Notes under the pieces: model-generated
What the model was told of the DNA's origin: nothing
What the model saw: only the letters and a program-made list of their open reading frames with translations
The model's database searches: none
NCBI GenBank assembly: GCA_024239035.1
Contig: JANBVK010000001.1
Coordinates: 506,202 to 570,201, forward strand
Reading direction: 5' to 3'
Source of the DNA: Patescibacteria group bacterium
Lineage (GTDB): Bacteria > Patescibacteriota > Minisyncoccia > UBA6257 > GWB1-50-10
Length of the DNA: 64,000 bases
Translations under genes and position numbers: made by a program
In this document: positions 1 to 61,027 of the stretch, in pieces
How positions within the stretch are numbered: position 1 is the stretch's first letter
Layout: every line of letters starts with the position of its first letter

Positions 1-324
1 CGCGGGCTTTTGGGATCAGGCGGTGAATCCGAGTTATCAACATTAATCCTCCCGTTTTTAGATGTTATAATACAAGAAGTGAAATACGCTCGCGATTCTT
101 ATGAGCGCCGTTATTCAAAAAAAGTTGAGAAGTTAATTCTTGTCGGTGGCGGCGCTAATTTACTGGGCATTGAGAAATATTTTGGAAACCAGATGGATTT
201 GGTCATCACTGCTCCGCCGACGTTTGCCAATCTTGAATATAACCCCGAGCTTGAACCAGCGGTTAAAGGTCTAGCGCGGCAGCTGCCCGTCGCTCTTGGA
301 TTAGCGAAGAAATATTTCACGTAA
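1..324 (+). CDS. pilM: Type IV pilus assembly protein PilM, C-terminal fragment (5' end lies outside the window)
   Basis: ORF runs in from the window edge. C-terminal actin-like ATPase segment (LILVGGGANLLGIEKYFG). Directly followed by pilN/pilO-like genes. Confidence 0.55.
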   Translation, partial: RGLLGSGGESELSTLILPFLDVIIQEVKYARDSYERRYSKKVEKLILVGGGANLLGIEKYFGNQMDLVITAPPTFANLEYNPELEPAVKGLARQLPVALGLAKKYFT

Positions 325-540
325 AGGGCTTTGTATAAATTTTAGAGCTAACAGTGATGAAAATTTATGACTTCGACTGAGCTCAGCCGAATGTCCTACA
401 AAATCTTTATCCCCTCCTTTTCGCGCTTGCGCAAAAGAAGGGGGTGCACAAATTTATGATAAAATTTATTTCACCAAAGGCCCGCCCCATTAGATGTATA
501 AAGCTATCTAACGGGGTGAATAAATTTTAATAAATTTGGC
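325..540 (+). promoter_or_regulatory. Conserved pilus-gene leader module, copy A. It has an extended -10 (TGTATAAAT at 332-340) right after the pilM stop, AAAATTTAT blocks and TTTGGCATG at the start codon.
   Basis: Shares ordered sequence blocks with 1999-2210 and 7145-7280 (AGGGCTTTGTATAAATTTT, GATGAAAATTTAT, CAAAACCTTTATCC, AAATTTGGCATG). Confidence 0.5.
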
Positions 541-1128
541 ATGCCTGAAACAAAATCTCCAACAATACCAACAACCCCTCCGTCTCCGAATAATTTAAAA
601 GAACAGTTTGTATCTGAGGCTATTCCTGTTGGACTTCCTTGGCGACTGCTCATTTTTTCACTTATTCTCTTTGGTTTTTCCCTTTTTGTATTTTTTGGTC
701 TGCGTTTCGGGTACAACTCTTACATTGATACCAGAACCGGGGACCTTGATGAAAAAATTGGGAATCTAAGTGGGCAGGTCAGTCAGGAAGAGCAACAAAG
801 TTTTATTAACTTTTATTCTCAACTCGTCAATCTCAAGAAAGTTCTCGATCGCCACGATTTCACTGCCAGTATTTTCAGCTTTCTTGAAAAGAACACTCTT
901 GGGAAAATTTCTTACATTGATGCTGATTTTACCGTTCTAGACAGTTCGTTAACTTTAAAGGGAGCTGCTGCATCAAGTGAGTCACTAATCAATCAACTCA
1001 CTTTATTTGATGAATCCCTGGAAGTGGATCGGGTTGTTTTAAATCAAATGAACTCTAGTAAGGATGGAGTAACTTTTGGCGTAACGCTATTTTTCAATCC
1101 AGATTTTTTTAAGAAGCCAGCATTATAA
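541..1128 (+). CDS. pilN: PilN-like pilus assembly protein (single N-terminal TM helix)
   Basis: 195 aa. TM helix LLIFSLILFGFSLFVFF followed by a periplasmic coiled region. Sits between pilM and pilO. Confidence 0.5.
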   Translation: MPETKSPTIPTTPPSPNNLKEQFVSEAIPVGLPWRLLIFSLILFGFSLFVFFGLRFGYNSYIDTRTGDLDEKIGNLSGQVSQEEQQSFINFYSQLVNLKKVLDRHDFTASIFSFLEKNTLGKISYIDADFTVLDSSLTLKGAAASSESLINQLTLFDESLEVDRVVLNQMNSSKDGVTFGVTLFFNPDFFKKPAL

Positions 1129-1129
1129 C

Positions 1130-1699
1130 ATGAAAACATCAACCAAAAGAATTTTGAGCATCGGTTTAGCAGGACTTTTCTTTATTGGTATTCTTGTAGT
1201 CTTTGGCAGCCTTATCCGGCCGGAGATGACGAAAATCAACGAGAAGAGAGCTCTTCTAAGTTCCAAAGAAACTCTTTTTAGCAACGAGCAGGATGCCGTC
1301 AGTCAGGTAAGGGATCTTATTGGTCAATTTCAGAGTATCGTCAAGCTTCAAGAGACCGTTTCTTTAGCCCTTCCTTTAGAGGAGAACATTACTCAGATTT
1401 TAAACCAACTGCAATCTATTGCTAATTTATCTAATGTTGAGATGAGGTCTTTTTCTATAAGACCCCTTGCTTTTGAGGCGTCAAGGCAGCCTTTAGTAAA
1501 AAGGTTGGGTGTTTTGGAATTAGATATCTCTATTGATGGTCCATATGATAATATTAAAAATTTCCTAAGATCACTTGAGACGAACGTCCGGGTAGTCAAT
1601 GCAAAGAGTTTTCGTCTTGCCACCATTAGTGGTGAAGGTTCACCACCTGGCGAAGATTTTAATATGACATTAACAGTCGAGGTATACCATCAAGAATAA
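1130..1699 (+). CDS. pilO: PilO-like pilus assembly protein
   Basis: 189 aa. N-terminal TM helix then coiled coil. Operon position after pilN with a 1-nt spacer. Confidence 0.45.
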   Translation: MKTSTKRILSIGLAGLFFIGILVVFGSLIRPEMTKINEKRALLSSKETLFSNEQDAVSQVRDLIGQFQSIVKLQETVSLALPLEENITQILNQLQSIANLSNVEMRSFSIRPLAFEASRQPLVKRLGVLELDISIDGPYDNIKNFLRSLETNVRVVNAKSFRLATISGEGSPPGEDFNMTLTVEVYHQE

Positions 1700-1707
1700 C
1701 CAGCGTT

Positions 1708-1998
1708 ATGGCCATCACCATTGAACAAGAAAAAAAACCAGTTAATTGGGTCGCTATTCTTACAGCGGTTGTTATTGTCGTTGTTTTGTTTATTGGGACT
1801 TATTTCCTCTTTTTCAAAAAACCCGAGCTGATTGAAATAGTGACTCCAGGAACGCTTCAGGACGTAAGTAAAATTTCCAAACTTTCTTTTGATCCTGAGA
1901 GTGTCTTGAATTCGCCCACCTTCAAGCTTTTGAGGCAGTACGGTACGGGCGTTACGGTTCCTACTCCTGGTCGGAGTAACCCGTTTAAGCCGTTTTAA
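1708..1998 (+). CDS. Small membrane protein at the end of the pilMNO operon (PilP-like?)
   Basis: 96 aa. TM helix ILTAVVIVVVLFIGTYFLFF. Tightly coupled to pilO. Confidence 0.3.
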   Translation: MAITIEQEKKPVNWVAILTAVVIVVVLFIGTYFLFFKKPELIEIVTPGTLQDVSKISKLSFDPESVLNSPTFKLLRQYGTGVTVPTPGRSNPFKPF

Positions 1999-2210
1999 AG
2001 GGCTTTGTATAAATTTTCAAGCTAAGGGCGATAAAAATTTATGTACAAAACCTTTATCCTGAGCCAGTCGAAGGATTATAATTTAAAAGGTGACTCTTCG
2101 ACTCCGCTCAGAGTGCTCAATGTTGTAGGACATTCGGCTGAGCTCAGTCGAAGCCATAAATCTTCTTCACTGCGCATTGAACTCCGTTCGAAAATTTATA
2201 CAACATTGGC
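1999..2210 (+). promoter_or_regulatory. Conserved pilus-gene leader module, copy B, upstream of pilB
   Basis: Starts AGGGCTTTGTATAAATTTT immediately after a stop codon, as copy A does. Contains the 28-mer 2123-2150, which is the exact reverse complement of 374-401. Confidence 0.5.
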
Positions 2211-3944
2211 ATGACAGATCAAGCTTTATTTAAAGAACTAGTTGAGAAGAAAGTTTTAGATAAGTCATTAGCAGAGAAAACACTAAGAGACGCCGGTTTT
2301 ACTGGTCGTTCGGCTGAGGAGATTTTGTACGAGAAGCGACTAGTTGACGAAATTGTCACTGCGAAGGTTAAAAGTGAACTCTTAGGAGCCCCTTACAAAA
2401 AAATTGATCCAACAGCTATTCCCGACGATCTGCTTAAAATTATCCCTTACGAAACTTCAAAAACGTATCGGGTTATTCCCATTGAGAAGCAGAAGGATAT
2501 GCTTGTTGTTGGAATGCTGCGTCCGGATGACGTGAGAGCGCAAGAAGCCCTTCGCTTTATCGCCAAACGTGAGCGTTTGTCTTTAGGTGTTTTTATTATT
2601 ACCCCCTCAGACTTAACGGCTGTTTGGCGCCGCTACACACCTTACCGGAGTGAGATTGAATCCGCTGTTAAGGAACTGAGCGTGAAACCGGACGAAGAAG
2701 AGCGCCTCATTTCTCTAGAAGAAGGAACAAAGAGCGCCGAAGAAGCGCCTATCATAAAAATTGTTGCTTCAACTCTGCGGCAGGCAGTTGAGGTTTCTGC
2801 CTCAGATGTTCATATTGAACCGCAGCGTTCACGTTTGAGATTAAGGTTTAGGGTTGATGGCAAGCTTCAAGAAGTTGCTTCTCTACCTCTCTCACTCAGT
2901 AAGCCGATTGTTTCTCGGGTTAAAGTGCTCTCTCGCCTCCGACTTGATGAGACACGTATTCCCCAAGACGGACGCTTTAGAACCTTGGTTTTTGGCAGGG
3001 ATATTGATTACCGTGTCTCCACTTTCCCGACGCCCTCCGGTGAAAAGGTGGCTATCAGGGTGCTTGATCCTACTACCGGTCTTCGGGGGTTGAAAGAGAT
3101 AGGACTTAGTGATTACAATTTTAAAATTTTAGACAAAGCAATAAAAGCCCCTTATGGAATGATTTTGATCACCGGCCCTACTGGTTCGGGTAAGACAACA
3201 ACTCTTTATGCAATAATGCAGAAGATTAACAGAGAAAGTCTGAATATTGTGAGTTTAGAAGACCCGGTAGAGTATTTTATGGATGGTATTAACCAGTCTC
3301 AAGTTAGACCTAAGATCGGTTATGATTTTGCCTCCGGTCTTCGTCAAATTCTTCGTCAGGACCCGGACGTGATTATGGTTGGCGAGATTCGTGACTCCGA
3401 AACAGCTTCATTAGCAGTAAACGCCGCGCTTACCGGGCATATGATGCTGTCAACGCTGCATACGAATAATTCTGTCGGCGTCATTCCTCGTTTGGTTGAT
3501 CTTGACGTGCCGGGCTTTCTTTTGTCTTCAGCGCTAAACTTAATGTTGGCCCAGCGATTAGTTGCGCGGCTTTGTCCGGATTGCAGAGAAAAAAGTAAAG
3601 CGCCGCCGGAGGCACAAAAAGTTATAGCTCTTAACCTGGATTCGTTATCACCGGTATTGAAAAAAAATATAAAGTTCACTTCTCCCTATAATACTTATCA
3701 TACTAACCCTAAAGCTGACTGTAAGTCTTGTGGTGGTAAGGGTTTTGTTGGTCGGATAGCAATTTTTGAAATTTTCAGAATGACCCGAGAGTTGGGAGAG
3801 ATTATTAACGCCGGATTTACGGAAGGAAAACTTCGGGATGAGGCTCGTCGCCAGGGGATGGTTAATCTAAGGCAAGACGGTATTATTAAAGCACTAGAAG
3901 GAGATGTTTTATTAGAAGAAGTACTTAAAGAAACAGAGCAATAA
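2211..3944 (+). CDS. pilB: Type IV pilus assembly ATPase PilB (GspE family)
   Basis: 577 aa. Walker A ITGPTGSGKTTTLYA and a GspE N-terminal domain. C-terminal tetra-Cys (CPDC...CKSCGGKG). Confidence 0.9.
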   Translation: MTDQALFKELVEKKVLDKSLAEKTLRDAGFTGRSAEEILYEKRLVDEIVTAKVKSELLGAPYKKIDPTAIPDDLLKIIPYETSKTYRVIPIEKQKDMLVVGMLRPDDVRAQEALRFIAKRERLSLGVFIITPSDLTAVWRRYTPYRSEIESAVKELSVKPDEEERLISLEEGTKSAEEAPIIKIVASTLRQAVEVSASDVHIEPQRSRLRLRFRVDGKLQEVASLPLSLSKPIVSRVKVLSRLRLDETRIPQDGRFRTLVFGRDIDYRVSTFPTPSGEKVAIRVLDPTTGLRGLKEIGLSDYNFKILDKAIKAPYGMILITGPTGSGKTTTLYAIMQKINRESLNIVSLEDPVEYFMDGINQSQVRPKIGYDFASGLRQILRQDPDVIMVGEIRDSETASLAVNAALTGHMMLSTLHTNNSVGVIPRLVDLDVPGFLLSSALNLMLAQRLVARLCPDCREKSKAPPEAQKVIALNLDSLSPVLKKNIKFTSPYNTYHTNPKADCKSCGGKGFVGRIAIFEIFRMTRELGEIINAGFTEGKLRDEARRQGMVNLRQDGIIKALEGDVLLEEVLKETEQ

Positions 3945-3954
3945 TGAATACTCC

Positions 3955-5028
3955 ATGATGGATTACAAGAAAAAATTAGATGAGTTGTTGCTTATCACCG
4001 CTCGTCAAAACGCCTCTGATCTTCACATAGCGGTTGGTCGCCGTCCGACTATCCGGATAGATAGTGTTCTCGTTCCTCTTGCTAAGGAAACTATTCTCAC
4101 TAAGGAGGATGCCGAAGGTTTAGTGCTTACTCTTTTGACAGAGGAACAAAAAAAAGCTTTCTCTCTGAAGAAACAAGTTGATTTTTCATACAGCCTTGAA
4201 GACAAAGCCCGATTCCGGGTTAATGTTTACATGCAGCGAGCTTTTATGGCCGCCGCACTTCGTTTAATTCCAGCTCAGATTAGAACGATTGAGGAACTGA
4301 ATCTACCACCGCTTATCCACGATTTCACTAGACTTAATCAGGGATTCATTTTAGTAGTTGGGCCGGCTGGTCACGGCAAGTCTACCACCTTAGCGGCTCT
4401 TCTTGATGAAATTAACCACAAACGGACAGACCATATCATTACCGTGGAAGACCCGATTGAGTATTTATTTTCACAGGACCGGTGCATTATCTCTCAGCGA
4501 GAAGTGGGACTTGATACCCTTTCTTTTGGTGATGCTCTTCGTTCGGTTTTACGTCAGGATCCAGACGTAATTATGATTGGTGAGGTTCGGGATCCGGAGA
4601 CAATGGCAACGGCTATGACGGCGGCTGAGACTGGCCATTTAGTGTTCTCCACCATGCACACGAATTCCGCCTCTCAAACAATTGACAGAATAATTGATAG
4701 TTTCCCGCCTAGTCAGCAGGGTCAGATTATTTCACAACTCGCATCAACACTTGTTGCCGTTGTCTCCGAGCGTTTGATTCCACGTGTTGGGGGTGGCAGG
4801 ATCCCAGCTACCGAGATTATGTTGGCCAACCCCGCCATCAGAAACCTTATTCGGGAGAAGAAAATTTATCAGATTGACTTGGTTATTGAAACGAGTGTTC
4901 AGGAGGGGATGTTGTCACTAAACCGTTCGCTCGTGAATTTAATAAAGAGCAAGGAAGTTTCCTTAGAACAAGCAAAGGGTTATTCCCTAAACCCGGCCGA
5001 GCTGGGAATATTACTTGAAAGAACATGA
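3955..5028 (+). CDS. pilT: Twitching-motility retraction ATPase PilT
   Basis: 357 aa. Walker A VVGPAGHGKSTTLAAL. PilT-type length with no N-terminal GspE domain. Confidence 0.85.
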   Translation: MMDYKKKLDELLLITARQNASDLHIAVGRRPTIRIDSVLVPLAKETILTKEDAEGLVLTLLTEEQKKAFSLKKQVDFSYSLEDKARFRVNVYMQRAFMAAALRLIPAQIRTIEELNLPPLIHDFTRLNQGFILVVGPAGHGKSTTLAALLDEINHKRTDHIITVEDPIEYLFSQDRCIISQREVGLDTLSFGDALRSVLRQDPDVIMIGEVRDPETMATAMTAAETGHLVFSTMHTNSASQTIDRIIDSFPPSQQGQIISQLASTLVAVVSERLIPRVGGGRIPATEIMLANPAIRNLIREKKIYQIDLVIETSVQEGMLSLNRSLVNLIKSKEVSLEQAKGYSLNPAELGILLERT

Positions 5029-6230
5029 AATTTGGCTATAAAGCTAGAACTAAAGAAGGAGAGCTTCAAATCGGCAATGTTGAAGCAGCTAATCGTGACA
5101 GCGCGTTAAGTATCCTTTTGGGGCACGGACTTTTTGTTTTGAGTTTGGAGCTGATTTTGGAAGTTCACTGGTACGCAAGAATACTTGATTTCTTCAAGCG
5201 GGTTAAGTCGACTCATCTGATGATTTTTACCCGGCAGTTTGCTACTCTTCTTGCTTCCCAAGTACCCCTTTCAGATAGTCTAGCCAACCTTTATCGTCAG
5301 ACCAGTCACCCGCTTCTTAAAGAAACTATTGCTGATATTGCCAATGACATTGATGCTGGCTTCTCCTTATCACAGTCTCTTGAGCGACACACGAGTATTT
5401 TCTCTGAGTTTTACGTCAATATGGTAAAGTCAGCTGAGGTAACTGGCCGCCTTTCCGAGGTGCTCGACTTCTTAGCAGATTATCTGGAAAAACAAGCTGC
5501 ACTGTTTGCTAAAGTTAAAAATGCACTAATTTATCCGATTTTTGTGATTGCACTTTTTATAGTGGTAGTGATTGTTATGGTTTCCGTAGTTTTACCTCAA
5601 ATCACTCCTATCTTTTCAGAGGCAAACATTGAATTACCTATTTTTACTCAAATTTTACTTAGCCTCGGTAACTTCATTTCTCGCTGGTGGTGGGCTGTTG
5701 GTATTGTACTTTTCGTGTTTCTTCTCATGATTATTGATTATTTCCAGACCGAAGAAGGAAAAGTGGTTTTTGATGAATTGAGTTTACGGGTACCTGTAAT
5801 CGGATTGCTTTTTCGGAAGCTCTACATTGCCCGTTTTGCCGAATCAAGCCGGGTGTTAATTAAGGGAGGCCTTACCATTCCCCAAGCAATTGAAATATCA
5901 TCTCATACCATCGGTAACACCGTTTACCAAGGATTACTCCACGAAGCATCAGGTCAGATCCGAAAAGGACAACTTCTTTCTAAAACACTTGAGGCGATGC
6001 CGGAGTTCCCACCGCTTGTTTCTCAGCTCATTAGCGTGGGGGAGACAACCGGTCGTTTGGAACAGCTTTTAGAAAAGGTTAGCGATTTTTATACTCGGGA
6101 GGTGGAAGACATGGTTAATAACTTAGTTACCCTTATCCAACCTGCGTTGATGGTTGTAATTGGCGGGATGGTGGCGCTCCTTTTTGCTTCAATTCTTCTG
6201 CCGCTCTATAATCTTTCGAGAGCTTTCTAA
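5025..6230 (+). CDS. pilC: Type IV pilus inner-membrane platform protein PilC (GspF family)
   Basis: 401 aa. Two GspF repeats and TM segments. ATGA overlap with pilT. Confidence 0.85.
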   Translation: MKFGYKARTKEGELQIGNVEAANRDSALSILLGHGLFVLSLELILEVHWYARILDFFKRVKSTHLMIFTRQFATLLASQVPLSDSLANLYRQTSHPLLKETIADIANDIDAGFSLSQSLERHTSIFSEFYVNMVKSAEVTGRLSEVLDFLADYLEKQAALFAKVKNALIYPIFVIALFIVVVIVMVSVVLPQITPIFSEANIELPIFTQILLSLGNFISRWWWAVGIVLFVFLLMIIDYFQTEEGKVVFDELSLRVPVIGLLFRKLYIARFAESSRVLIKGGLTIPQAIEISSHTIGNTVYQGLLHEASGQIRKGQLLSKTLEAMPEFPPLVSQLISVGETTGRLEQLLEKVSDFYTREVEDMVNNLVTLIQPALMVVIGGMVALLFASILLPLYNLSRAF

Positions 6231-6305
6231 ATAGATGAGATTGGCAATTATGCTATAATATTTTAAGAAAAGGTCGGCGAACGATAAATAGTTAACGAAA
6301 GTAAA

Positions 6306-6683
6306 ATGTTAAATAATAAAGGATTTACCTTAATTGAAACATTAGTCGTTATAGCGATTATCGGGCTTTTAAGCTCAGTTGTAGTAATTGGTCTCGGCGG
6401 AGCAAGATCAAAAGCCAGAGACGCTCGCCGGATTGCGGATATCCGATCAATTCAGAGCGGTCTTGAGGTTGATTATACTGCAGTCGCTGGATACCCTGCC
6501 ACTATTCCGGCAAATGCCCCACAGACGGATCCGCAAGGTACGAGCTATGCTTATGAAATAGTTGGTACCGAAGGCTATCTACTGGGGATTTGTTTGGAAA
6601 ACACAGAAGGAACTACCGGTGCCGCTCCCTGCCCCGCTGCGGGTGTCAGTTGTGTTGGTAACGAGTACTGTGTTTCTCAATAA
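6306..6683 (+). CDS. Type IV pilin (prepilin N-terminal cleavage/methylation domain)
   Basis: Leader MLNNKG|FTLIETLVVIAIIGLL. C-terminal Cys-rich tail. Confidence 0.7.
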   Translation: MLNNKGFTLIETLVVIAIIGLLSSVVVIGLGGARSKARDARRIADIRSIQSGLEVDYTAVAGYPATIPANAPQTDPQGTSYAYEIVGTEGYLLGICLENTEGTTGAAPCPAAGVSCVGNEYCVSQ

Positions 6684-6703
6684 CACTCGATTATATACAC
6701 GAA

Positions 6704-7144
6704 ATGAATAATAAAGGATTCACTCTTATTGAAATGCTTGTCGTTATTGCGATTATTGGTCTTCTCTCTTCAACAATTTTGATTGGTTTGGGGAACGCGC
6801 GGACTCGGGCACGGGACGCGCGGCGTATCTCTGATTTGCGCCAAGTACAGAACGGTTTGGAAAATCATTATGTGGAGAGTAATCAAACTTACCCTCAGGA
6901 TGTCTACAATTCCATCTCCGGCCTGCCCGTTGACCCACAAGGAGGAGAGTACGGTTATGTGAGGATTAGTACCCAAAGTTATGTGCTGGGAGCGTGTCTT
7001 GAAAATGACAGATCAAGCGACATTCAGAGCTTTAGTAGTAACTATGATGTGAGTCCTATTGGCAGTCCACTTATACCGCCGCCTACTTGTAACTGCGAAG
7101 ATTCTGATTCTTACTGCGTCGCAATTGGAATAGGCGGCCGTTAA
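6704..7144 (+). CDS. Type IV pilin, second paralogue
   Basis: Leader MNNKG|FTLIEMLVVIAIIGLL. C-terminal Cys residues. Confidence 0.7.
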   Translation: MNNKGFTLIEMLVVIAIIGLLSSTILIGLGNARTRARDARRISDLRQVQNGLENHYVESNQTYPQDVYNSISGLPVDPQGGEYGYVRISTQSYVLGACLENDRSSDIQSFSSNYDVSPIGSPLIPPPTCNCEDSDSYCVAIGIGGR

Positions 7145-7280
7145 GGGGCTTGGTATAAATTTTCGAGGCCTACTCGATGAAAATTTATTTACCAAACCTT
7201 TACCCGCCTAAATTTTTGCGAAGTAAAAACTTGGGTGGGTGCTCAAATTTATAACTTCGCTTTACTCAGATAAATTTGGC
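7145..7280 (+). promoter_or_regulatory. Conserved pilus-gene leader module, copy C, upstream of pilD
   Basis: GGGGCTTGGTATAAATTTT after the stop, GATGAAAATTTAT, CCAAACCTTTACCC, and AAATTTGGCATG at the start codon. Confidence 0.45.
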
Positions 7281-8180
7281 ATGTCGTATATTTATTATTT
7301 AATCCTCTTTTTATTCGGGCTCTCGGTGGGGAGTTTTTTGAATGTCGTTGCTCTGCGGTATCAACCATCACGTAGTGTTTTTGATCCTCGAAGTTTAAGT
7401 GGACGGTCTAATTGCCCTTACTGCAGAGCGAAACTTGAGTGGTTTGAATTAATTCCAATAATCTCTTTTCTTATTCAGAAAGGGAAGTGTCGAAGGTGTG
7501 GTCACCGATTATCTTTCCAGTATCCTGTTGTTGAACTTTTATCGGGACTAATTTTCATTGCCGTCCCTTTTTATTTTCATAGATTTTACGGTGTTCTTAA
7601 TCTCTTTTCCTTTGATTCTTCGCTTCACTCTTTTTATGGGTTCCTAGTTGTTTGGGTTTTAGTATTTATTGTCTGGCTTTTAATTAGTATTATTGACAGC
7701 CGCCATTATCTTATTCCTAATGAGTTGAACGTGAGCTTGGGGATACTAGGAGTAATTATCGTTCTTATTAAAAGCTTCCCTTCCTCATGGCTTCTGCCTT
7801 TTCATAATACTTTTTTGCGGCATTATGAACTTTTGTTTTCACCTTTTCAAAACGTAATTGCAAACCATTTGTTAGGAGCTTTGTTAGGAGCTCTTTTTTT
7901 CGGGATTTTAATAGTTGTGAGTCGCGGTCGGGCAATGGGATTAGGTGATGTAAAACTTGCCTTGGCTTCTGGTTTAGTGCTTGGCTGGCCTGATATTGGT
8001 TTGGCAACGCTTTTGGCTTTTATTTTTGGTGGGGCGTGGGGTGTAATTTTACTGCTTACAAAGAAAAAGACTATGCGCGATAAAATTCCTTTTGCCCCTA
8101 TTTTTATTTTAGGTGTCGTTGTTACAGTATTTTTTGGCTTTGGAATTGTAAACGGCTACTTTAGTTTGTTTAATATTTAG
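7281..8180 (+). CDS. pilD: Prepilin peptidase PilD (A24 family)
   Basis: Polytopic membrane protein with a CPYC...CRRCGH zinc motif. The ATG at 7281 follows the conserved TTTGGCATG. The ORF track starts at an upstream GTG at 7239, which lies inside the leader. Confidence 0.8.
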   Translation: MSYIYYLILFLFGLSVGSFLNVVALRYQPSRSVFDPRSLSGRSNCPYCRAKLEWFELIPIISFLIQKGKCRRCGHRLSFQYPVVELLSGLIFIAVPFYFHRFYGVLNLFSFDSSLHSFYGFLVVWVLVFIVWLLISIIDSRHYLIPNELNVSLGILGVIIVLIKSFPSSWLLPFHNTFLRHYELLFSPFQNVIANHLLGALLGALFFGILIVVSRGRAMGLGDVKLALASGLVLGWPDIGLATLLAFIFGGAWGVILLLTKKKTMRDKIPFAPIFILGVVVTVFFGFGIVNGYFSLFNI

Positions 8181-24545: not shown

Positions 24546-24670
24546 ATCCCGTTAGAAACAGGATGTGCTTGAAAAGCGCATCCGTGATATGCTGTCTAAC
24601 TCAACCCTTAATACATCTCTTAATGATTTGGCAGATGTAAGGTTTATAGTCTGATTGTTTCTAACGGGAT
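24546..24670. repeat. MITE-like element with perfect 15-bp terminal inverted repeats ATCCCGTTAGAAACA / TGTTTCTAACGGGAT and about 95 bp internal sequence
   Basis: The inverted repeat is seen directly. Its core matches the inverted repeats at 34537-34631 and 484-516. An internal GGATGTGC...GCGCATCC hairpin is present. Confidence 0.55.
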
Positions 24671-28832: not shown

Positions 28833-29396
28833 ATGACTAAAAAATATTTAATAATAGGTGTTGTCATTATTATAGTTGGAGTAATCGGCTACGTTGTTTT
28901 TGTGCTCGTTAGTTCTAGTGAGTTAAACGAACTATCACCAATTGAGAGTAGCTCCTTAATCGCCGTTAATGACTCTTTTGACACTATGACCTCCGACGAG
29001 ATGGCAGAATTTAATAAGGCGGTAGACGCTATGAAAGATGACATTATGATCAAAGACGAAGACATGCCTTCTGCTCCGACTGCTCCGAGTGTCACTGCTC
29101 AGGGAGAATTTAGACGACGAGCTCATAGTGTGGAAGGAAAAGCTTTAATCATCGAACATGACGGTGAGCGCGTGCTGCGATTTGAAGATTTTGAAACAAG
29201 TAATGGCCCCAATTTACATATCTATCTTTCGTCAGGACTTGGCATTGGTGATTCAATTGATCTAGGGAAAATCCGCGCCACAAAAGGAAATGTGAACTAC
29301 CCGATTGACCCCGGTATAGATACTAAAAAGTACAATAAGGTTTTAGTGTGGTGCGTACCTTTCCGCGTACTCTTCAGTTATGCGGAATTACAATAA
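28833..29396 (+). CDS. Membrane-anchored DM13-domain protein
   Basis: TM helix after MTKKYL. C-terminal ...GERVLRFEDFETSNGPNLHIYL...KGNVNYPI...VWCVPFRVLFSYAEL matches the DM13 pattern. The ORF track starts at an upstream in-frame ATG at 28779. Confidence 0.5.
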   Translation: MTKKYLIIGVVIIIVGVIGYVVFVLVSSSELNELSPIESSSLIAVNDSFDTMTSDEMAEFNKAVDAMKDDIMIKDEDMPSAPTAPSVTAQGEFRRRAHSVEGKALIIEHDGERVLRFEDFETSNGPNLHIYLSSGLGIGDSIDLGKIRATKGNVNYPIDPGIDTKKYNKVLVWCVPFRVLFSYAELQ

Positions 29397-29401
29397 CCCC
29401 C

Positions 29402-29434
29402 AAACGGCTCAACGATGAGTGCCGTTGAGCCGTT
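29402..29434. repeat. Hairpin AACGGCTCAACG-N8-CGTTGAGCCGTT, also a likely terminator, copy 1
   Basis: Perfect 12-bp stem. An identical stem recurs at 32518-32550. Confidence 0.6.
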
Positions 29435-29532
29435 AGATTATTTGCAATTATATGCTCAGATAAGTATTCTAAAAGACAGTTATTTCACACGTAAAATTGT
29501 ATAATTCACGATAAGAAAGGCAGGGTAATCAG

Positions 29533-32500: not shown

Positions 32501-32517
32501 CAAGGAGGTCTAAAAAC

Positions 32518-32550
32518 CAACGGCTCAACGACAATCATCGTTGAGCCGTT
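32518..32550. repeat. Hairpin CAACGGCTCAACG-N8-CGTTGAGCCGTT, also a likely bidirectional terminator, copy 2
   Basis: Same 12-bp stem as 29403-29434. Lies between the convergent purA and thioredoxin-like genes. Confidence 0.6.
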
Positions 32551-32571
32551 TAAATTTATAAGAAACAGGTA

Positions 32572-34531: not shown

Positions 34532-34636
34532 GTTGACCCCGTTAGAAATCCGCCCTGCCAAGGGCATGGCGGCAGGCCCTCGACTGAGCTCGGTCGAAGT
34601 CCCACCTCGGGGCGGCTTATTTCTAACGGGGTTGAC
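34532..34636. repeat. MITE-like element with 12-13-bp terminal inverted repeats (C)CCCGTTAGAAAT / ATTTCTAACGGG(G) flanked by the direct 6-bp GTTGAC on both sides
   Basis: Inverted repeat and flanking direct repeat seen directly. The interior holds the TCGACTGAGCTCGGTCGA near-palindrome shared with the pilus leaders. Confidence 0.55.
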
Positions 34637-39617: not shown

Positions 39618-40301
39618 ATGGTTATCCAGGATTGGGTATCAGTTGTAGTTAGTTCGCTCCAGAACTTGTGGGTAGGCGCGGTTGGAGTGCTGGGCAGCAT
39701 TATCGGGGCGCTTATAGTGCTCATCGTCGGTTTAATTGTTGCCTCGGGCTTGGCAGCGTTAGTGGAAAGGATTGTTGGTCTTCTTAAGATAGACAAACTC
39801 TTAATGAACCTTGGGCTCCAGGAGTACTTTGAACGAGCGAGTCTTAAAATAAACAGTGGCCGATTCTTCGGAAGAATCGTGTACTGGTTTTTGGTAGTAG
39901 TATTCCTATTAGCGGCTACTGACATCCTTGGGTTTTTCACTCTCTCTAATTTCTTAAGAGATGTGCTTCTCTACATTCCGAACGTGATTGTAGCGGTTTT
40001 GATTATGCTGGCAGCGGTTATTGTTGGAAACCTCTTGAGGAATCTTGTTAGGGCGTCTGTGGAAAGCGCAAAGCTTCACGCAGCAAGTTTCCTGTCATCA
40101 CTTACCTGGTGGGCGGTTATTGTCTTCGGATTTTTTGCCGCTCTCTCTCAGCTTGGGATTGCTGTTTCCATCATTAACTCTCTAGTTACCGGTTTTGTTG
40201 CAATGCTTGCCCTCGCTGGCGGTATTGCCTTCGGCCTTGGTGGTAAGGATTACGCTACGTCACTCCTTAATAAATTAAGGCATCACGTCGGAGATAAGTA
40301 A
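39618..40301 (+). CDS. Hypothetical integral membrane protein (internally duplicated TM pairs)
   Basis: 227 aa with multiple TM helices. Strong stem-loop terminator downstream at 40319-40380. Confidence 0.35.
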   Translation: MVIQDWVSVVVSSLQNLWVGAVGVLGSIIGALIVLIVGLIVASGLAALVERIVGLLKIDKLLMNLGLQEYFERASLKINSGRFFGRIVYWFLVVVFLLAATDILGFFTLSNFLRDVLLYIPNVIVAVLIMLAAVIVGNLLRNLVRASVESAKLHAASFLSSLTWWAVIVFGFFAALSQLGIAVSIINSLVTGFVAMLALAGGIAFGLGGKDYATSLLNKLRHHVGDK

Positions 40302-40393
40302 GTATCGCGAGACGCTTTTGTGCCCGGCGGTGAGATCGTGACCGTGGTTTGCCTCGGTTGCGGTTCTACCGCCGGGCACATTTATTTTTATTT

Positions 40394-44148: not shown

Positions 44149-45105
44149 TTACTGGCTCCAGTTCAGAATAATGTCGTCTATTCTGGGTGTCATACTCTGG
44201 GCAAGATTACTCTCAAGAGTGACCCTGTAGCGGAGATATCGGTTGTCTTTTATCCATTCTCTGTCGCAGCTTTTTATCTCAATTGCACTGTTGGGCCCGG
44301 GGCAAGTGGCACCAAAGAATTGGTCGGTATCTCCTTGACCATCACAGGCGATATCCGGTCCCCAAAAGCTCCAAGGTCCGCTTGAGCTGTTTGATGCTGC
44401 AATTTGGAATTTAGTGCAAGTTCCGGCTGGCTGACTACCCTGCCAGATGATGCTGTTTAGAGTTACTCCACCCGCTATCTGGGCATCAAAAATTGATGAT
44501 TCCAAGATTGCGGTGAGTTTGCCTGCTCTCCAACTTGTTTCGACTTTATAATCAGAGATGCCGCAGCCGTTGTTGTTAGCGCAGTTAAAACTAATCCAGC
44601 CCTCATCGTCGTTCCAAGCGTATCCCTGGAAGATTCCATTAGCGTCTATGGTTACCCGGTAGTTTGAACTAGAACACGTGCTTGAGGCATCCTCAACTCC
44701 TGAACCATCGCAGTCACCATCGCCGCACCAAAAACTAATCCAGCTAATTTGGTCATTCCAGGCGCAACCGGAGAGATTGCCGCTGCCGTCCGGATTTGTG
44801 ACTTGGTAATCACTGGTTGAGCAAATGTCTCCGATTGGACTTGTGGCGCAGTCAAGAGAAATTTCTTCGATTGACGAGCTGGCATAACCGACAAGTGTTG
44901 AGGTGCCGACAATAACGGTGTGGGTCTTATGAAAATCCCACCAACCGCTTATATCACTCCACGCCATGCTACTGGTGGCATTTGAGCTAATGTTAGTTCC
45001 GGGGTTACTGTCCGCCGCCGCTTTTTGGGATTGAAAAAACAAAACAATCGTGAGAGTAACAGTCATTACTACAAGGATCCAAAAAATGACTTTTGCAACT
45101 TTCAT
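44149..45105 (-). CDS. Secreted Cys-rich repeat protein (3 copies of GxAWND..xWISFxC)
   Basis: Signal/anchor VIFWILVVMTVTLTIVLFF, then repeats SGCAWNDQISWISFWC, QGYAWNDDEGWISFNC and others. Its stop is 2 nt upstream of cysS. Confidence 0.5.
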   Translation of the reverse strand: MKVAKVIFWILVVMTVTLTIVLFFQSQKAAADSNPGTNISSNATSSMAWSDISGWWDFHKTHTVIVGTSTLVGYASSSIEEISLDCATSPIGDICSTSDYQVTNPDGSGNLSGCAWNDQISWISFWCGDGDCDGSGVEDASSTCSSSNYRVTIDANGIFQGYAWNDDEGWISFNCANNNGCGISDYKVETSWRAGKLTAILESSIFDAQIAGGVTLNSIIWQGSQPAGTCTKFQIAASNSSSGPWSFWGPDIACDGQGDTDQFFGATCPGPNSAIEIKSCDREWIKDNRYLRYRVTLESNLAQSMTPRIDDIILNWSQ

Positions 45106-50852: not shown

Positions 50853-50980
50853 TCCGAAGAGGGAAAAATTTGCCAACTCGGAAAATTTGTGTCGCCTTGG
50901 AAGTTATCCCCAAAAATATGTGTTTCGGCCGCCTTTCAATTTAATTTTAAAAACCTAAAATAAGAAAAGGTCACTCATTA

Positions 50981-51030
50981 AAGTATTTTAAAGTATTTTA
51001 AAGTATTGCAAAGTATTTTAAATTATTGCC
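50981..51030. repeat. Tandem 10-bp repeat array (AAGTATTTTA x2, AAGTATTGCA, AAGTATTTTA, AATTATTGCC) ending 23 bp upstream of nrdJ
   Basis: Five head-to-tail units with helical-turn periodicity, seen directly. Confidence 0.6.
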
Positions 51031-51052: not shown

Positions 51053-53512
51053 ATGAAAGAGAAAAAAAATACTCTTCGTAGCGAGGTTAAATTAAGCGAC
51101 GCGAGAATTAACAGAAGTTTTTCGGAAAATGCCTTGAAGATGATGCGCAAGCGTTATCTTTTTACCGACGAAAAAGGTAATCAGGAGACTTCCGCCCAGA
51201 TGTTTCATCGGATTGCCCGCACTTTAGCTGAAGTTGAGAAAAATTACGGTCACAATGCGCAATTTGTAAAGAAAGTTGAGCGCGACTTCTTTGAAATTAT
51301 GGCTGGTAAGGAATATACACCCGCTGGGCGGACGATTACAAACGTCGGAACACCTACATCCCTTATCGCGAACTGTATTGTTTTGCCAATTCACGATTCA
51401 ATGGAGAGTATTTTTCAAACCTTAAAGGATGCATCTCTTCTGCAGCAAGCCGGTTCGGGTTTAGGCTTTTCTCTTGATGAACTCAGGCCGTCAATGTCGC
51501 CGACAAAACGGTCGCGAGGTTCCTCGTCCGGTCCGGTTTCATTTTTAAAAATTTACAACGAAGCTTTTAGTACAATTAAACAGCAGGGGCGTCACGGTGC
51601 GAACATGGCAATGATGAGCGTTGATCATCCCGACGTTTTGGACTTTATCCGTTCAAAAGCAGTAGAAGGAGAGATTAGAAACTTTAATATATCTATTAAG
51701 GTGACTGATAAGTTTATGAGAATGGTGGAGGAGGAACCGGATGAGCAATGGTATTGTACGTGGAAAGGTAAAAAGTCAAAACCCAGTAAAGTTCTTCGGC
51801 ACCCGAACGGAAGTGTTTACGGGTCAGAGGATATCAACATTACGGTTGGCGAACTTTTTAACGAAATTGTTGAATACGCTTGGACAAACGGGGAACCGGG
51901 TATAGTTTTTATTGATACTGTAAACAAATCAAATCCTTTGCCGGGCTTAGGGCGAATTGAGTGTTCTAATCCTTGCGGTGAACAGTTTTTACACTCCTAC
52001 GATAATTGTAATTTGGGATCGATTAATCTGGCCACCCTTGTTAAAGATAAGCAAGTTGATTACGAGCGACTTAGATTTGTGGTGAAGACTGCAGTACGGT
52101 TTATGGATAACGTGATTGATAAGTTTGATTTCCCGGTTAAGAAAGTTACCGCCTTAGCGCGTAAGAATCGCCGGATCGGTTTGGGAATTATGGGGTTTGC
52201 TGACATGCTTTTCCAACTCGGCATTAAATACAATTCTGAAGAAGGATACGCTACAGCAGGAAAAATAATGTCAGTCATTCAAGAATCAGCTCATAGAATG
52301 TCTCAGGAGCTTGCTGAGGAGAAAGACGTTTTTCCCAATTACCCAAAGAGTATTTTTGCAGAAAAGAAAATAAAAATGAGAAACGCTGCCCTGACTACCA
52401 TTGCTCCAACTGGTTCTATTGCTATGATGTTTGATTCTTCTTCCGGTGTGGAACCGAACTTTGCTTTAGCCTACATCAAACAAGATAAGGATGGTGTGCA
52501 GTACCAATATCTCAATAGATATTTTGAGGAAGAACTTCGGCGTCGGACATTTGATGAGGTAACCATTTCAGAGATTAAAAAGGAGATTGTTAAAACCGGC
52601 AGTATTCAAAACCTTGATTATCTACCCCAGGATCTCCGTGATACGTTTGTGGTTGCAATGGATATACCAGGTGAAGATCACATTGGAATGCAGGCCGCGT
52701 TTCAAAATCATATTGATAATTCTATTTCCAAGACTATTAATCTCCCGAATAGTGCAACCCGGGAGGACGTTAAGTCCAGCTTTCTTCAGGCGTGGAAGTT
52801 GGGGTGCAAGAGCTGCACGGTCTATCGGGACGGCAGCCGCAACATTCAAATTTTAAACCTGGGAACGGGAGAGAATATAAAATCAACCACTGAGGCACCG
52901 ACAGGAGAGAATTCACCGGAAGAAACTAACCTTGACCTAGAGATAGACAAAGGGAAGCTCTCGCCAAGAGCTCGGCCGATGGTTATGGAGGGAAAGACCT
53001 ATAGGGTAAAAACCGGCTATGGCAAGCTTTATATCACAGTTAATAATGACGAAACCGGAGTGCCTTTTGAGGTATTCGCGACAATTGGGAAGAGCGGCGG
53101 TTTTTTCCAGGAGCAAAGCGAGGGTATTTGCCGGCTTATTTCCTTGTCTCTCCGAGCCGGCATTAAAGTTGAAGAAATTATCGATAACTTAAAAGGCATT
53201 CGCGGACCAATGCCTGTGTTTTCTGATAAGGGAACAATTCTTTCATTGCCGGATGCTATCGGGCAAATACTGGAAGAACATGTTCGGAAAGAAATACCAA
53301 AAGCGGAACTGCCGGCGGGTTCTAAAGTTTCTGAGGCGGCCGTGGTAGCAGCAAAAGTAGATTTGGATTTTCTTAAGAAAGAAAATGAAATTAAAGGAGA
53401 ATCACTAGCCGATAACGGAATGATGCCAGGTTGCCCGGATTGTGGTGCGTCCCTTCAGGTAAGTGAAGGGTGCTTGAATTGCCGAAGCTGCGGCTTTACG
53501 AGATGTACGTAG
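51053..53512 (+). CDS. nrdJ: Adenosylcobalamin-dependent (class II) ribonucleotide reductase with a C-terminal zinc ribbon
   Basis: 819 aa monomeric RNR core (…NCIVLP…, GLGFS, active-site Cys region). C-terminal CPDC...CLNCRSC. Confidence 0.85.
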   Translation: MKEKKNTLRSEVKLSDARINRSFSENALKMMRKRYLFTDEKGNQETSAQMFHRIARTLAEVEKNYGHNAQFVKKVERDFFEIMAGKEYTPAGRTITNVGTPTSLIANCIVLPIHDSMESIFQTLKDASLLQQAGSGLGFSLDELRPSMSPTKRSRGSSSGPVSFLKIYNEAFSTIKQQGRHGANMAMMSVDHPDVLDFIRSKAVEGEIRNFNISIKVTDKFMRMVEEEPDEQWYCTWKGKKSKPSKVLRHPNGSVYGSEDINITVGELFNEIVEYAWTNGEPGIVFIDTVNKSNPLPGLGRIECSNPCGEQFLHSYDNCNLGSINLATLVKDKQVDYERLRFVVKTAVRFMDNVIDKFDFPVKKVTALARKNRRIGLGIMGFADMLFQLGIKYNSEEGYATAGKIMSVIQESAHRMSQELAEEKDVFPNYPKSIFAEKKIKMRNAALTTIAPTGSIAMMFDSSSGVEPNFALAYIKQDKDGVQYQYLNRYFEEELRRRTFDEVTISEIKKEIVKTGSIQNLDYLPQDLRDTFVVAMDIPGEDHIGMQAAFQNHIDNSISKTINLPNSATREDVKSSFLQAWKLGCKSCTVYRDGSRNIQILNLGTGENIKSTTEAPTGENSPEETNLDLEIDKGKLSPRARPMVMEGKTYRVKTGYGKLYITVNNDETGVPFEVFATIGKSGGFFQEQSEGICRLISLSLRAGIKVEEIIDNLKGIRGPMPVFSDKGTILSLPDAIGQILEEHVRKEIPKAELPAGSKVSEAAVVAAKVDLDFLKKENEIKGESLADNGMMPGCPDCGASLQVSEGCLNCRSCGFTRCT

Positions 53513-60310: not shown

Positions 60311-61027
60311 ATGCATTTAATTGAGGTAAAAGATTTAGAGAAAACATATTATATTGATAGTGTTCAAACCCCGGCTCTTCGCGGGGTATCTTTTAAAATT
60401 AAAGAAGGAGAGTTTGTAGCCATAGTCGGTCCTTCGGGCTCGGGTAAATCAACCCTACTCCATGTTTTAGGGTTTTTAGACAGGCACACGGCGGGCGAGT
60501 ACCACTTTGATGGCAAAACTATTAATGATTATTCAGAAGAAGAAATTGCCCGTGTAAGGAATAAAGAGATGGGATTTATTTTCCAAACCTTTAATTTACT
60601 TCCTCGCACAACCGTTCTTGAGAACGTTAAACTTCCTCTTCTTTATTCCGGTGTTAAAGAGTCGTTGTGGGAGAAAAAAGCTCGGCAGGTTATTGATTCA
60701 GTCGGTCTTTCTCATCGGCTTCACCACGAATCTTCTCAGCTCTCAGGTGGAGAAATACAAAGAGTTGCCATTGCCCGCGCTCTTGTAAATAACCCGAGAA
60801 TTATTTTTGCTGATGAGCCTACCGGTAATCTTGATTCTAAGTCGGGGAAAGTAATCATGGAGCTTATTCAGAAACTTAATAATGACGGGCATACTGTCAT
60901 ATTAATCACGCACGAGACCTACACCGCCAAGCACGCAGAGCGTTTAATCCGCTTAAGCGATGGAGCGATAAAGGAGGACGCTCCCGTTGACCATCGTCTT
61001 GTCGCCGCTGACCACTTTACGAAATAA
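60311..61027 (+). CDS. ABC transporter ATP-binding protein (MacB/LolD type)
   Basis: Walker [10 protein letters not shown], signature LSGGEIQR, Walker B IIFADEPT. Confidence 0.9.

Follow-up and report, generated by a model that had tools for sequence, protein, structure and literature searches.

Three spacers of a patescibacterial type IV pilus cluster as probable non-coding remnants of a free-standing GIY-YIG cassette

Why should three spacers of one type IV pilus (pil) gene cluster hold copies of the same sequence module? The cluster opens the 64,000-nucleotide stretch analysed here (the window; positions 506,202 to 570,201 of contig JANBVK010000001.1, from a Patescibacteria group bacterium), and the copies stand upstream of a pilN-like gene, pilB and pilD. 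The initial annotation of this DNA read them as a shared promoter with a long structured leader that coordinates the pilus operons, or as the seat of an operator for a palindrome-binding regulator. Our results point elsewhere. The three spacers are non-coding members of an intergenic cassette family that is widespread in Patescibacteria of the Parcubacteria/Paceibacteria type; gain and loss of its copies is rapid, and the copies are mosaic, stand between genes that run in the same direction, and are not tied to pilus genes. We consider it probable, taking the reading as a whole, that the window copies are non-autonomous remnants of a free-standing GIY-YIG nuclease cassette, comparable to miniature inverted-repeat transposable elements (MITEs), and that they have no pilus-specific regulatory role.

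Each copy runs from the stop codon of one gene to the ATG of the next, filling the spacers 325-540, 1999-2210 and 7145-7280:

322 to 543, plus strand: copy 1, from the pilM stop TAA (322-324) to the ATG of the pilN-like gene (541-543); a putative derivative of the GIY-YIG cassette that lacks the open reading frame (ORF).
1996 to 2213, plus strand: copy 2, from the stop TAA (1996-1998) of a 96-aa gene to the pilB ATG (2211-2213).
7142 to 7283, plus strand: copy 3, from a pilin stop TAA (7142-7144) to the pilD ATG (7281-7283); the minimal, 142-nt form.

That these places hold three conserved modules, with shared blocks and a stop-to-ATG span, was correctly seen from the start. The opening block GGGCTTKGTATAAATTTT occurs exactly three times in the 64 kb, at 326, 2000 and 7146, each time 1-2 nt past the stop TAA, and shuffled sequences give 0.3 matches when up to 3 mismatches are allowed. 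The block ACMAAAYCTTTAYCC is in every copy (398, 2045 and 7191), and all three close on TTGGCATG at the start codon (541, 2211 and 7281), the ends reading AAATTTGGCATG in copies 1 and 3 and AACATTGGCATG in copy 2. The first 48 nt of copy 2 (1996-2043) are 88% identical to the start of copy 1, and 13 of the 22 window occurrences of the 8-mer ATAAATTT lie inside the roughly 560 bp that the modules make up, against 7.8 per whole window in shuffles. From the shuffle comparisons and the shared blocks, the similarity among the three spacers is far beyond chance. The conserved joints of the module are GGGCTTKG, MAAACCTTTAYCC, GGTGCNCAA and TTGGCATG.

What these joints hold together is a string of three consecutive hairpins, P1, P2 and P3, separated by linkers of 0-3 bases. 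The predicted fold of each spacer is far more stable than that of shuffled sequences (z = -4.8, -5.3 and -5.8 for copies 1, 2 and 3), which bears out the initial view of the spacers as one structured module. P1 opens on the last bases of the stop codon, where (U)AAAGGGCUUKG... pairs with ...CMAAACCUUU; P2 follows directly (ACC...GGU), with a sequence that differs between the three copies; and P3 follows P2 directly (GCNCAAAUUUAU...AUAAAUUUGGC), its last base being the base before the AUG. In minimum-energy folds that include the flanking codons, only 0-3 exterior linker bases are left across the 136-216 nt of the window copies: 1 nt in copy 1, where pairing runs from within the stop codon to the ATG, and 0 nt in copy 3. 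RNAalifold also sets P1, P2 and P3 end to end, the AA of the stop codon pairing with the UU of CCUUU. Compensatory changes are found in P1, with CTTTG/CAAAA in copies 1 and 2 against CTTGG/CCAAA in copy 3, and in P3, with CAAATTTAT/ATAAATTTG in copies 1 and 3 against CAATGTTGTA/TACAACATTG in copy 2. The hairpins, with the types that recur at other loci (cited by L numbers), are as follows:

323 to 409, plus strand: copy 1 P1; 5' arm AAAGGGCTTTGTATAAATTTT, 3' arm AAAATTTATG...TACAAAATCTTTA, interrupted by a nested palindrome; the closing helix of P1 covaries across the family.
370 to 396, plus strand: the nested 27-nt palindromic insert ACTTCGACTGAGCTCAGCCGAATGTCC, within the 3' arm of copy 1 P1.
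411 to 444, plus strand: copy 1 P2, CCCCTCCTTTTCGCG CTTG CGCAAAAGAAGGGGG, the slot of the GIY-YIG ORF in full-length cassettes; this type is also in L203, L097 and L165.
446 to 540, plus strand: copy 1 P3, GCACAAATTTAT...ATAAATTTGGC, with a nested mini-hairpin CCCCATTAGAT..ATCTAACGGGG at 485-516; the long P3 type ...TTTCACCAAAGG... is common to L096, L117 and L121.
1997 to 2056, plus strand: copy 2 P1, a predicted fold.
2056 to 2114, plus strand: copy 2 P2, CCTGAGCCAGTCGAAGG...CTCTTCGACTCCGCTCAGAG; a similar type is in L098 and L147.
2115 to 2210, plus strand: copy 2 P3, of the CAATGTTGTA...TACAACATTGGC subtype, which is also in L197, L114, L166, L187 and L148, the helix being kept by compensatory changes.
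7143 to 7201, plus strand: copy 3 P1, the CTTGG/CCAAA compensatory variant.
7202 to 7240, plus strand: copy 3 P2, ACCCGCCTAAATTTTTGCGAAGTAAAAACTTGGGTGGGT, of the CCCGCCAAAATTTT type frequent in the family.
7241 to 7280, plus strand: copy 3 P3, short type, GCTCAAATTTAT AACTTCGCTTTACTCAG ATAAATTTGGC.

The same architecture is common in other genomes. Metagenome contigs were scanned with a pattern taken from P3 (GGTGCNCAAATTTAT N14-44 ATAAATTT; copy 3 is the only window copy that matches it), and at least 120 stretches matched where, by our own estimate, about 4 would be expected by chance; among the matches listed, nearly all the real ones have the whole architecture and end ...AAATTTGGCATG. The covariance model R1, based on 11 full copies, scores copy 1 at 92.3 bits (E 7e-16), copy 2 at 66.2 (1.6e-10) and copy 3 at 129 (2e-23), and it finds 112 matches in 517 kb of pattern-selected loci and 32 in a further 120 kb (L190-L215). 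Among the matches listed, about 110 are distinct copies outside the window, and several contigs carry 2-3 of them. Of the 84 near-full-length distinct copies, 70 have the ATG of an ORF as their exact end, and in 56 the first triplet is TAA or TGA. A TRA opens copies even in places where it does not serve as a stop codon, some copies end in GGCAAA and a terminator-like hairpin with no ATG, and in some the upstream ORF runs into P1. With its ATG-less copies and the ORFs that read into P1, the module behaves as a self-contained unit of sequence rather than one that arose where it stands. A second module subfamily (L091, L108, L165, L178, L185 and L209) joins a different P1, TTTAGAAAAATAA...TATATTTTTCTAACC, to the short P3 type, and therefore the scaffold has at least two P1 lineages.

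The neighbours of these copies are, for the most part, not pilus genes. For 65 copies, the downstream genes give matches to 72 Pfam families, most of them of translation, transcription, secretion and replication, among them S8 (three times), L10 (twice), S12, S11, S13, L6, RpoA, SecA, Hsp70, SSB, MraZ, ribonucleotide reductase and PilB/PilT ATPases (T2SSE and MshEN, three times each); by gene name, the module stands upstream of rpsH, rplJ, rpsL, rpsK, rpsM, rplF, rpoA, secA, dnaK, ssb, mraZ and pil genes. By our reading about 15 of 69 downstream ORFs are pil genes, Pfam confirming the ATPases only; pil genes are thus enriched downstream in the same way as ribosomal-protein genes are, and the enrichment is not specific. 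Certain junctions are found again from contig to contig (rpsH three times, pilB four times). Some copying within genomes is also seen: among 34 copies that lie on contigs with several copies, 9 find their best match on their own contig, and copies 1 and 2 of the window have a private nested palindrome in common. Moreover, the copies are mosaic, with different P2 types, nested palindromes and, once, an inverted P1-like unit as hairpins. Within the window only tRNAs reach the gathering score in Rfam 15, and eight good family members gave no Rfam match at the E-value threshold. In viral contigs there was a single pattern match, in coding sequence and with no R1 score. The modules hold no conserved small ORF, the short frames from ATGAAAATTTAT differing among the three window copies. 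Since the cassette is described neither in Rfam nor in the literature searched on Patescibacteria and the candidate phyla radiation (CPR), the family, abundant as it is in these ultra-small genomes, appears to be undescribed.

The link to a nuclease gene comes from the longest members. In L096, L159, L188 and L197 the P2 arms, as inverted repeats on either side, enclose an ORF of 72-90 aa, for a cassette length of 376-419 nt. The ORF starts in or just past the 5' arm of P2 and reaches to the 3' arm or just into P3, within its opening bases, so that the order is host stop codon, P1, P2 5' arm, ORF, P2 3' arm, P3, host ATG. Each product consists of a GIY-YIG catalytic domain (PF01541, E 1.6e-7 to 3e-17), of a protein family with at least 2800 clusters of 85-90 aa, which sources name 'GIY-YIG nuclease family protein [Patescibacteria group bacterium]'. 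By blastn, the four full cassettes align to ORF-less copies at both ends only, with identities at the two ends of 86% and 94% for L159 against L158 and of 89% and 95% for L096 against L117; the window copies match cassette ends as well (L096 with copy 1 at 92-100%, L197 with copy 2, L159 with copy 3). The association also holds from the protein side: all three GIY-YIG genes sampled by protein homology (L211, L221 and L231) lie in the order stop, P1, arm, ORF, arm, P3, ATG, with compensatory P3 variants (CAAATTTGT/ACAAATTTG, GATTTTTT/AAAAAATC and ACTC.../...AGT). The settings recorded for this sample were:

P0138: in a type IV secretion system (T4SS)-like cluster of Parcubacteria GW2011_GWD2_38_12.
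P0137: before mraZ.
P0183: between rpsI and a murJ-like gene.

GIY-YIG ORFs with P2-type arms only, and neither P1 nor P3, are found in L197 (8250-8750), L165 and L115. The window copies keep P1, P2 arms collapsed to a short hairpin, and P3, with no ORF, and stand to the full cassette as a MITE does to its autonomous element.

The pil clusters of relatives bear on how old the window copies can be. With Pfam labels taken from those relatives, the cluster in the window reads, all coordinates being those of the window:

10 to 324: end of pilM.
541 to 1128: pilN-like gene.
1130 to 1699: pilO-like gene.
1708 to 1998: gene for a 96-aa product.
2211 to 3944: pilB.
3955 to 5028: pilT.
5025 to 6230: pilC.
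6306 to 6683 and 6704 to 7144: two pilin genes.
7281 to 8180: pilD.

PilB relatives carry the labels Brennerbacteria, Jorgensenbacteria and Paceibacterota. In the closest of them, L081 (PilB 90% identical), the three junctions have no module and the spacers measure 21, 84 and 31 nt; L087, L088 and L089 have compact clusters, with spacers of 1-13 nt at most pil junctions. The module is absent from the pil loci of L081, L082, L083 and L086-L089, and the only relatives that have it at this locus are L084 (PilB 77%; before pilB) and L003 (PilB 59%; before the 96-aa gene). R1, run on 660 kb of Patescibacteria pil loci, finds the three window copies and those in L003 and L084 only. Sites that are filled in the window are occupied in relatives by spacers of 1-31 nt or by different hairpin elements, a presence/absence polymorphism, and unrelated hairpin repeats sit in various pil spacers of other relatives, often likewise placed from stop to start. 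The initial annotation had proposed conservation of the leaders in relatives as a check, and at the orthologous junctions of the closest relatives they are missing. Given this patchy presence, gain and loss of the module take little evolutionary time, and it is no leader inherited from an ancestral pil cluster.

Several further observations were made in these pil loci. At the pilM-pilN junction of L003 (5350-5383), a 10-nt spacer and the end of pilM read TCAAATTTATAAAAATTTAGCATG, which resembles a P3 reduced to its two base arms and could be the footprint of a lost module or the seed for one. Small selfish-looking ORFs are inserted in the pil operons of relatives at L083 14228-14596, L082 9748-10161, L083 6143-6342 and L086 4586-4791; among these inserts are a 23S_rRNA_IVP/bAvd-like gene flanked by its genome's own hairpin repeat, a PDDEXK_3 gene between pilB and pilT, and degraded GIY-YIG ORFs with flanking inverted repeats. 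In this clade, the pil operon looks like a hot spot for insertions of this sort in general. In several Patescibacteria genomes (L001, L004, L006, L008, L012, L022, L024 and other loci), the 577-aa PilB gives a tblastn match some 2.5 kb long and not 1.7 kb, which implies an insertion of about 800 bp inside pilB, possibly an intein or an intron.

Turning to the palindrome, the sequence TCGACTGAGCTCAGYCGAA is found at 373-391 and 2133-2151 and, with 1-2 mismatches, at 34580-34598, where none would be expected by chance. A match at 60574-60593 lies inside ABC-transporter coding sequence and was dismissed as a chance match. As a 27-nt insert in copy 1, the palindrome has no counterpart where copies 2 and 3 align with it, and it recurs inverted at 2128-2154 and partially at 34580-34598. 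The inverted occurrence is explained by the interior of copy 2 P3, which is an inverted copy of the copy 1 P1 hairpin with its nested palindrome (2128-2154). The initial annotation had reported a 28-mer in opposite orientations in copies 1 and 2: the orientations are confirmed, and the match is longer than was given, with 352-404 against 2120-2172, 53 nt, at 92% complementarity, and a stretch of about 84 nt by nhmmer (match 2203-2120, minus strand). Its suggestion of an embedded mini-repeat fits a 27-nt palindrome nested in a hairpin arm, and the third copy it placed in an inverted-repeat element is indeed there:

34536 to 34632, no strand assigned: a separate inverted-repeat element, ACCCCGTTAGAAAT...ATTTCTAACGGGGT, which carries the third palindrome copy at 34580-34598; one of the common P2 arm families has arms of this type.

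The palindrome is seen only nested within other hairpin elements, in two of the three module copies, and in none of 237 fetched loci. From this distribution it behaves as a private nested insertion, not as a regulon operator.

The element just listed belongs to a second family of hairpin elements, with arms ATCCCGTTAGA(A/G)ACA...TGT(T/C)TCTAACGGGAT, represented in the window at 24546-24670 (behind a tRNA gene or between divergent genes, the two window elements occupying one such position each) and at 34536-34632, and in relatives at L081 3468-3597 and 7379-7498 and at L087 4593-4746. Arms of the ATCCCGTTAGA type are also common among the P2 hairpins of the module family, and in relatives such arms fill pil spacers and stop exactly at the ATG (...AACGGGATG). 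Elsewhere in the window, near-identical palindromes AAACGGCTCAACG...CGTTGAGCCGTT at 29402-29439 and 32514-32551 lie just past genes whose ends are at 29396 and 32500, and a further long palindrome (40319-40380) lies past a gene ending at 40301; these may be terminators or another hairpin-repeat family. At 50978-51027, about 5 tandem copies of the 10-bp unit TTAAAGTATT occupy the spacer before a gene starting at 51053.

The hairpins are under constraint, but of what kind is a matter of interpretation. In a model-based alignment, pairing holds in 96.3% of helix cells, compared with 79% in shuffled alignments and 44-51% (33% at one offset) when the partners are slid, and double changes are found in 25 of 28 pairs; it is from the pairing excess and the double changes that constraint is concluded. 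When 70 modules were folded on both strands, G-U pairs were equally frequent on the two (245 vs 259), and the antisense strand was the more stable by a mean of 3.3 kcal/mol. Insofar as folding models can tell, this symmetry between strands would be the signature of DNA palindromes and not of an RNA read from the sense strand. As for translation, the organism is poor in Shine-Dalgarno (SD) sequences, with even a loose match before only 8 of 55 window genes. A TATAAT lies 7-9 nt before the ATG of many window genes (12448, 20275, 26645 and, on the minus strand, 44149-45105), which, on sequence grounds, suggests leaderless or near-leaderless mRNAs. Three simple roles for parts of the module were tried and rejected. 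An intrinsic terminator is contradicted by the lack of a U-tract behind any hairpin, and a terminator scan finds none in the modules. A leaderless promoter in the 3' arm of P3 (NATAAA-TTTGGC-ATG) would have 4 of 6 bases of the -10, no T at -7 and no -35, and it would leave P1 and P2 without an account; we regard it as remotely possible. An SD-like GGGGUG at the P2/P3 joint, which P3 would bring near the AUG, is at odds with an organism that shows no SD usage, and there is no 16S gene in the window.

The mechanism that we favor would run as follows. The cassette would be a selfish, free-standing nuclease-gene element that spreads by nuclease-initiated recombination, in a homing-like form of copying, into spacers between highly conserved genes, and the ORF-less copies would be its decayed remnants. 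Accumulation between the most conserved genes is what such recombination-dependent spread predicts, as for the seg genes of phage T4 (PMC2988022). The window copies would be carried within the polycistronic pil mRNA, where P1, beginning on the last bases of the stop codon, and P3, ending on the base before the ATG, may loop out the 136-216-nt insert, drawing stop and start codons together and preserving termination-reinitiation in an organism that hardly uses SD sequences. Copies are probably tolerated in operons in this way, because P1, P2 and P3 abut without linkers and loop the insert out. Looping out could matter here because only the few window genes noted above have so much as a loose SD match and related operons run on spacers of 1-13 nt.

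A number of points weigh against this account. No GIY-YIG ORF is present within the 64-kb window. In the cassettes the ORF is a bare catalytic domain, GIY-YIG covering almost the whole protein with no DNA-binding domain. No consistent target-site duplication was seen on inspecting the ends, in the absence of a systematic test, and no terminal inverted repeat spans P1 to P3, these two being separate hairpins and not inverted copies. The module always has the orientation of its flanking genes; its joints are conserved between genomes whose PilB proteins are only 59% identical (the window and L003); and the 28 closing pairs hold 66 G-U against 32 A-C, in an alignment fitted to the model. Conserved joints, fixed orientation and G-U excess would also fit a selected RNA function. 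Furthermore, the loop-out and reinitiation step is drawn from predicted folds only, and all copies outside the window except those in L003 and L084 were found by a module-derived pattern, so that their density and gene context are biased. Exact look-ups of three GIY-YIG proteins returned one locus each in many samples, with no direct sign of recent transposition to multiple sites. No Y1 HUH transposase was seen beside the copies examined, where no targeted search was made; the ORFs of the cassettes are GIY-YIG.

How far can the original model, an extended -10 promoter with a pilus-specific leader or a palindrome operator coordinating pilN, pilB and pilD, be kept? All three window copies are in the pil cluster, with none in the other 57 kb, and about 15 of 69 downstream ORFs are pil genes by our reading. 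The extended -10 box had been read in 'TGTATAAAT'; in copy 3 (TGGTATAAA) the TGn is in place and the box is a fair one, and in copies 1 and 2 the TG is one base out of register. However, a two-hexamer scan finds no promoter in the modules, and the TATAAAT segment turns out to be the 5' arm of P1, which is not conserved in the family (TCTAAATTTT, TCAAAATTTCC, TCTGAAATTTGG) and covaries as a helix arm, the partner arm compensating. Neither does coordination of the pilus genes survive the comparison, since the about 110 distinct copies elsewhere stand mostly before unrelated housekeeping genes and the closest relatives lack the module at the same junctions; nor does an operator, the palindrome being nested in 2 of 3 copies and absent from the 237 other loci. 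There is, moreover, a separate and truly conserved pilin promoter and leader motif, at 6250-6285 (see below). We judge the original model highly improbable.

Two other explanations deserve more attention. One is that the host selects the module as an intercistronic RNA device, in which P1-P2-P3 bridges stop and start for reinitiation, or else marks a processing ('punctuation') site, for instance for RNase III, so that the upstream mRNA would be released in stabilised form and the downstream mRNA left with a very short leader or none; the GIY-YIG gene would then be a passenger exploiting the device. The stop-to-ATG span of most copies, helices that abut with zero linker and pair the stop-codon bases, strong covariation, constant orientation with the flanking genes, joints kept at 59% PilB identity, the preference for G-U over A-C (66 vs 32) in closing pairs, and an SD-poor genome with leaderless-type promoters all suit such a device. 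Yet the closest relatives manage without the module, with 1-13-nt spacers at the same junctions; some copies end in GGCAAA and a terminator-like hairpin or are entered by upstream ORFs at P1; whole modules show no sense-strand preference for G-U and fold better in antisense; the count of 66 against 32 comes from an alignment fitted to the model; and mosaic copies with nested insertions are as expected of selfish DNA. The device therefore seems to us rather improbable, and the same doubt attaches to the more specific idea that P1/P3 is a true RNA device of SD-poor Patescibacteria, either bridging the codons for reinitiation or hopping across more than 130 nt or serving as a cleavage mark for leaderless mRNA. 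If that were true, the GIY-YIG cassette would bring its own translational-coupling module, and it could settle in essential operons without polar effects. The other explanation differs from the nuclease-cassette reading only in the mode of spread: P1 and P3 would be the left and right ends of a hairpin-ended transposon, and the GIY-YIG nuclease, structure-specific and in the role of transposase, would recognise them as DNA hairpins or cruciforms, much as IS200/IS605 and the ORF-less PATE derivatives have subterminal hairpins; the window copies would be non-autonomous and moved in trans. It is consistent with the constant place of the ORF between P1 and P3 in operon cassettes, with a nuclease that lacks a DNA-binding domain, as structure recognition would allow, with G-U statistics that are symmetrical between strands, with copies at dozens of different gene junctions, and with the TRA start even where it is not a stop codon. 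To our knowledge, no GIY-YIG transposase has been established in prokaryotes, and none was found in the literature searched; in addition, the GIY-YIG ORFs with P2-type arms only suggest that the P2 unit is mobile rather than P1-P3, and the recurring junctions (rpsH three times, pilB four times) look more like homing or vertical descent. A hairpin-ended transposon is thus tenable but unlikely, and we return to the reading of the copies as remnants of a free-standing nuclease cassette.

Comparison with known systems places the family between several of them. Like MITEs and other hairpin-forming repeats (Correia elements of Neisseria, pneumococcal BOX and RUP, enterobacterial ERIC, REP/BIME of E. 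coli), the module is short, non-coding, multi-copy, intergenic, presumably co-transcribed with its flanking genes and strongly self-complementary; it is modular or mosaic, as BOX is (A-B(n)-C) and as BIMEs are, with palindromic units alternating with fixed linkers; it is present or absent between relatives; and, as with MITEs, the window copies derive from an ORF-bearing relative. Unlike those repeats, it has as partner a bare GIY-YIG nuclease and not a DDE or RAYT transposase, no observed target-site duplication or end-to-end terminal inverted repeat, a constant orientation with respect to genes, an exact stop-to-start fit in the spacer, and joints conserved across distantly related genomes. 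The free-standing homing-endonuclease genes of T4-like phages (GIY-YIG seg, HNH mob; 'intronless homing', reviewed in PMC2988022) are likewise small selfish nuclease genes that lie between conserved operon genes in the same orientation, vary in presence among close relatives, prefer highly conserved neighbours and leave decayed ORF-less remnants. Seg proteins, however, exceed 200 aa and have a DNA-binding domain, whereas the cassette ORFs are 72-90 aa of catalytic domain only, and the cassette is found in cellular Patescibacteria genomes, on a scaffold of three hairpins and at many junctions instead of one cognate site.

Closer in phylum are the rRNA genes of CPR bacteria, in which GIY-YIG or 23S_rRNA_IVP ORFs occur in non-intron insertions at the tips of stem-loops, the GIY-YIG insertions having been concluded to fall outside classical site-specific homing (PMC11270868). 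These share with the cassette the GIY-YIG protein family and, together with classical rRNA intervening sequences, are looped out at the tips or bases of stem-loops; insertion into stem-loops there fits the same looped-out logic. The cassette differs in lying between protein-coding genes, and PMC11270868 describes no P1/P3 scaffold; the likeness of the nucleases is at the level of the protein family. With IS200/IS605, its ORF-less PATE derivatives and REP-RAYT, the family has in common end hairpins in place of terminal inverted repeats, an apparent lack of target duplication, a strand or orientation bias, and abundant non-autonomous copies; IS200/IS605 elements, by contrast, use a Y1 HUH transposase, and no conserved cleavage tetranucleotide is definable for the cassette. 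The RNase III hairpins of T7 early mRNA and the tRNA punctuation of mitochondria are structures placed exactly between cistrons, and suggest a possible function by analogy only: they could separate or stabilise mRNA segments and give short-leader or leaderless downstream messages. Unlike the module, they are neither mobile nor linked to a nuclease gene.

One spacer of the cluster does look like a pilus element in the proper sense. Between pilC and the first pilin gene (window 6231-6305), a promoter of the TGnTATAAT type is followed 10-20 nt on by AAAGGTCG, which lies 25-40 nt ahead of the ATG and is invariant between the window (promoter and leader motif at 6250-6285) and 7 of 7 aligned relatives with PilB 74-90% identical:

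L081: 8705-8775.
L082: 12501-12606.
L083: 12185-12324.
L084: 12064-12123.
L086: 9983-10048.
L087: 5953-6020.
L088: 9525-9584.

In L165, AAAAGGTCG lies ahead of a module that precedes a pilin gene. On the strength of this sequence conservation, the spacer before the major pilin is where the pilus cis-element that is truly conserved lies, a candidate for a pilin-specific leader or a binding motif.

The elements described here are of known kinds, non-autonomous repeats and free-standing nuclease genes; what is unusual is the combination of a bare catalytic domain, three abutting hairpins, an exact stop-to-start span and constant co-orientation. On the reading that we favor, a false lead is removed, there being no pilus regulon or leader RNA at these three spacers. 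In its place there is a family that inserts precisely from stop to start in the most conserved operons, those of ribosomal-protein, RNA polymerase and type IV pilus genes, and much of the difference in length among the spacers of these streamlined genomes would be due to it. A warning also follows, namely that strong covariation and conserved 'leaders' in CPR genomes can stem from selfish palindromic DNA. For annotation of these elements, R1 and the boundary anatomy could serve directly, and the copies in the pil cluster offer a testable case of an insertion that may be made harmless within a translationally coupled operon that lacks SD sequences.

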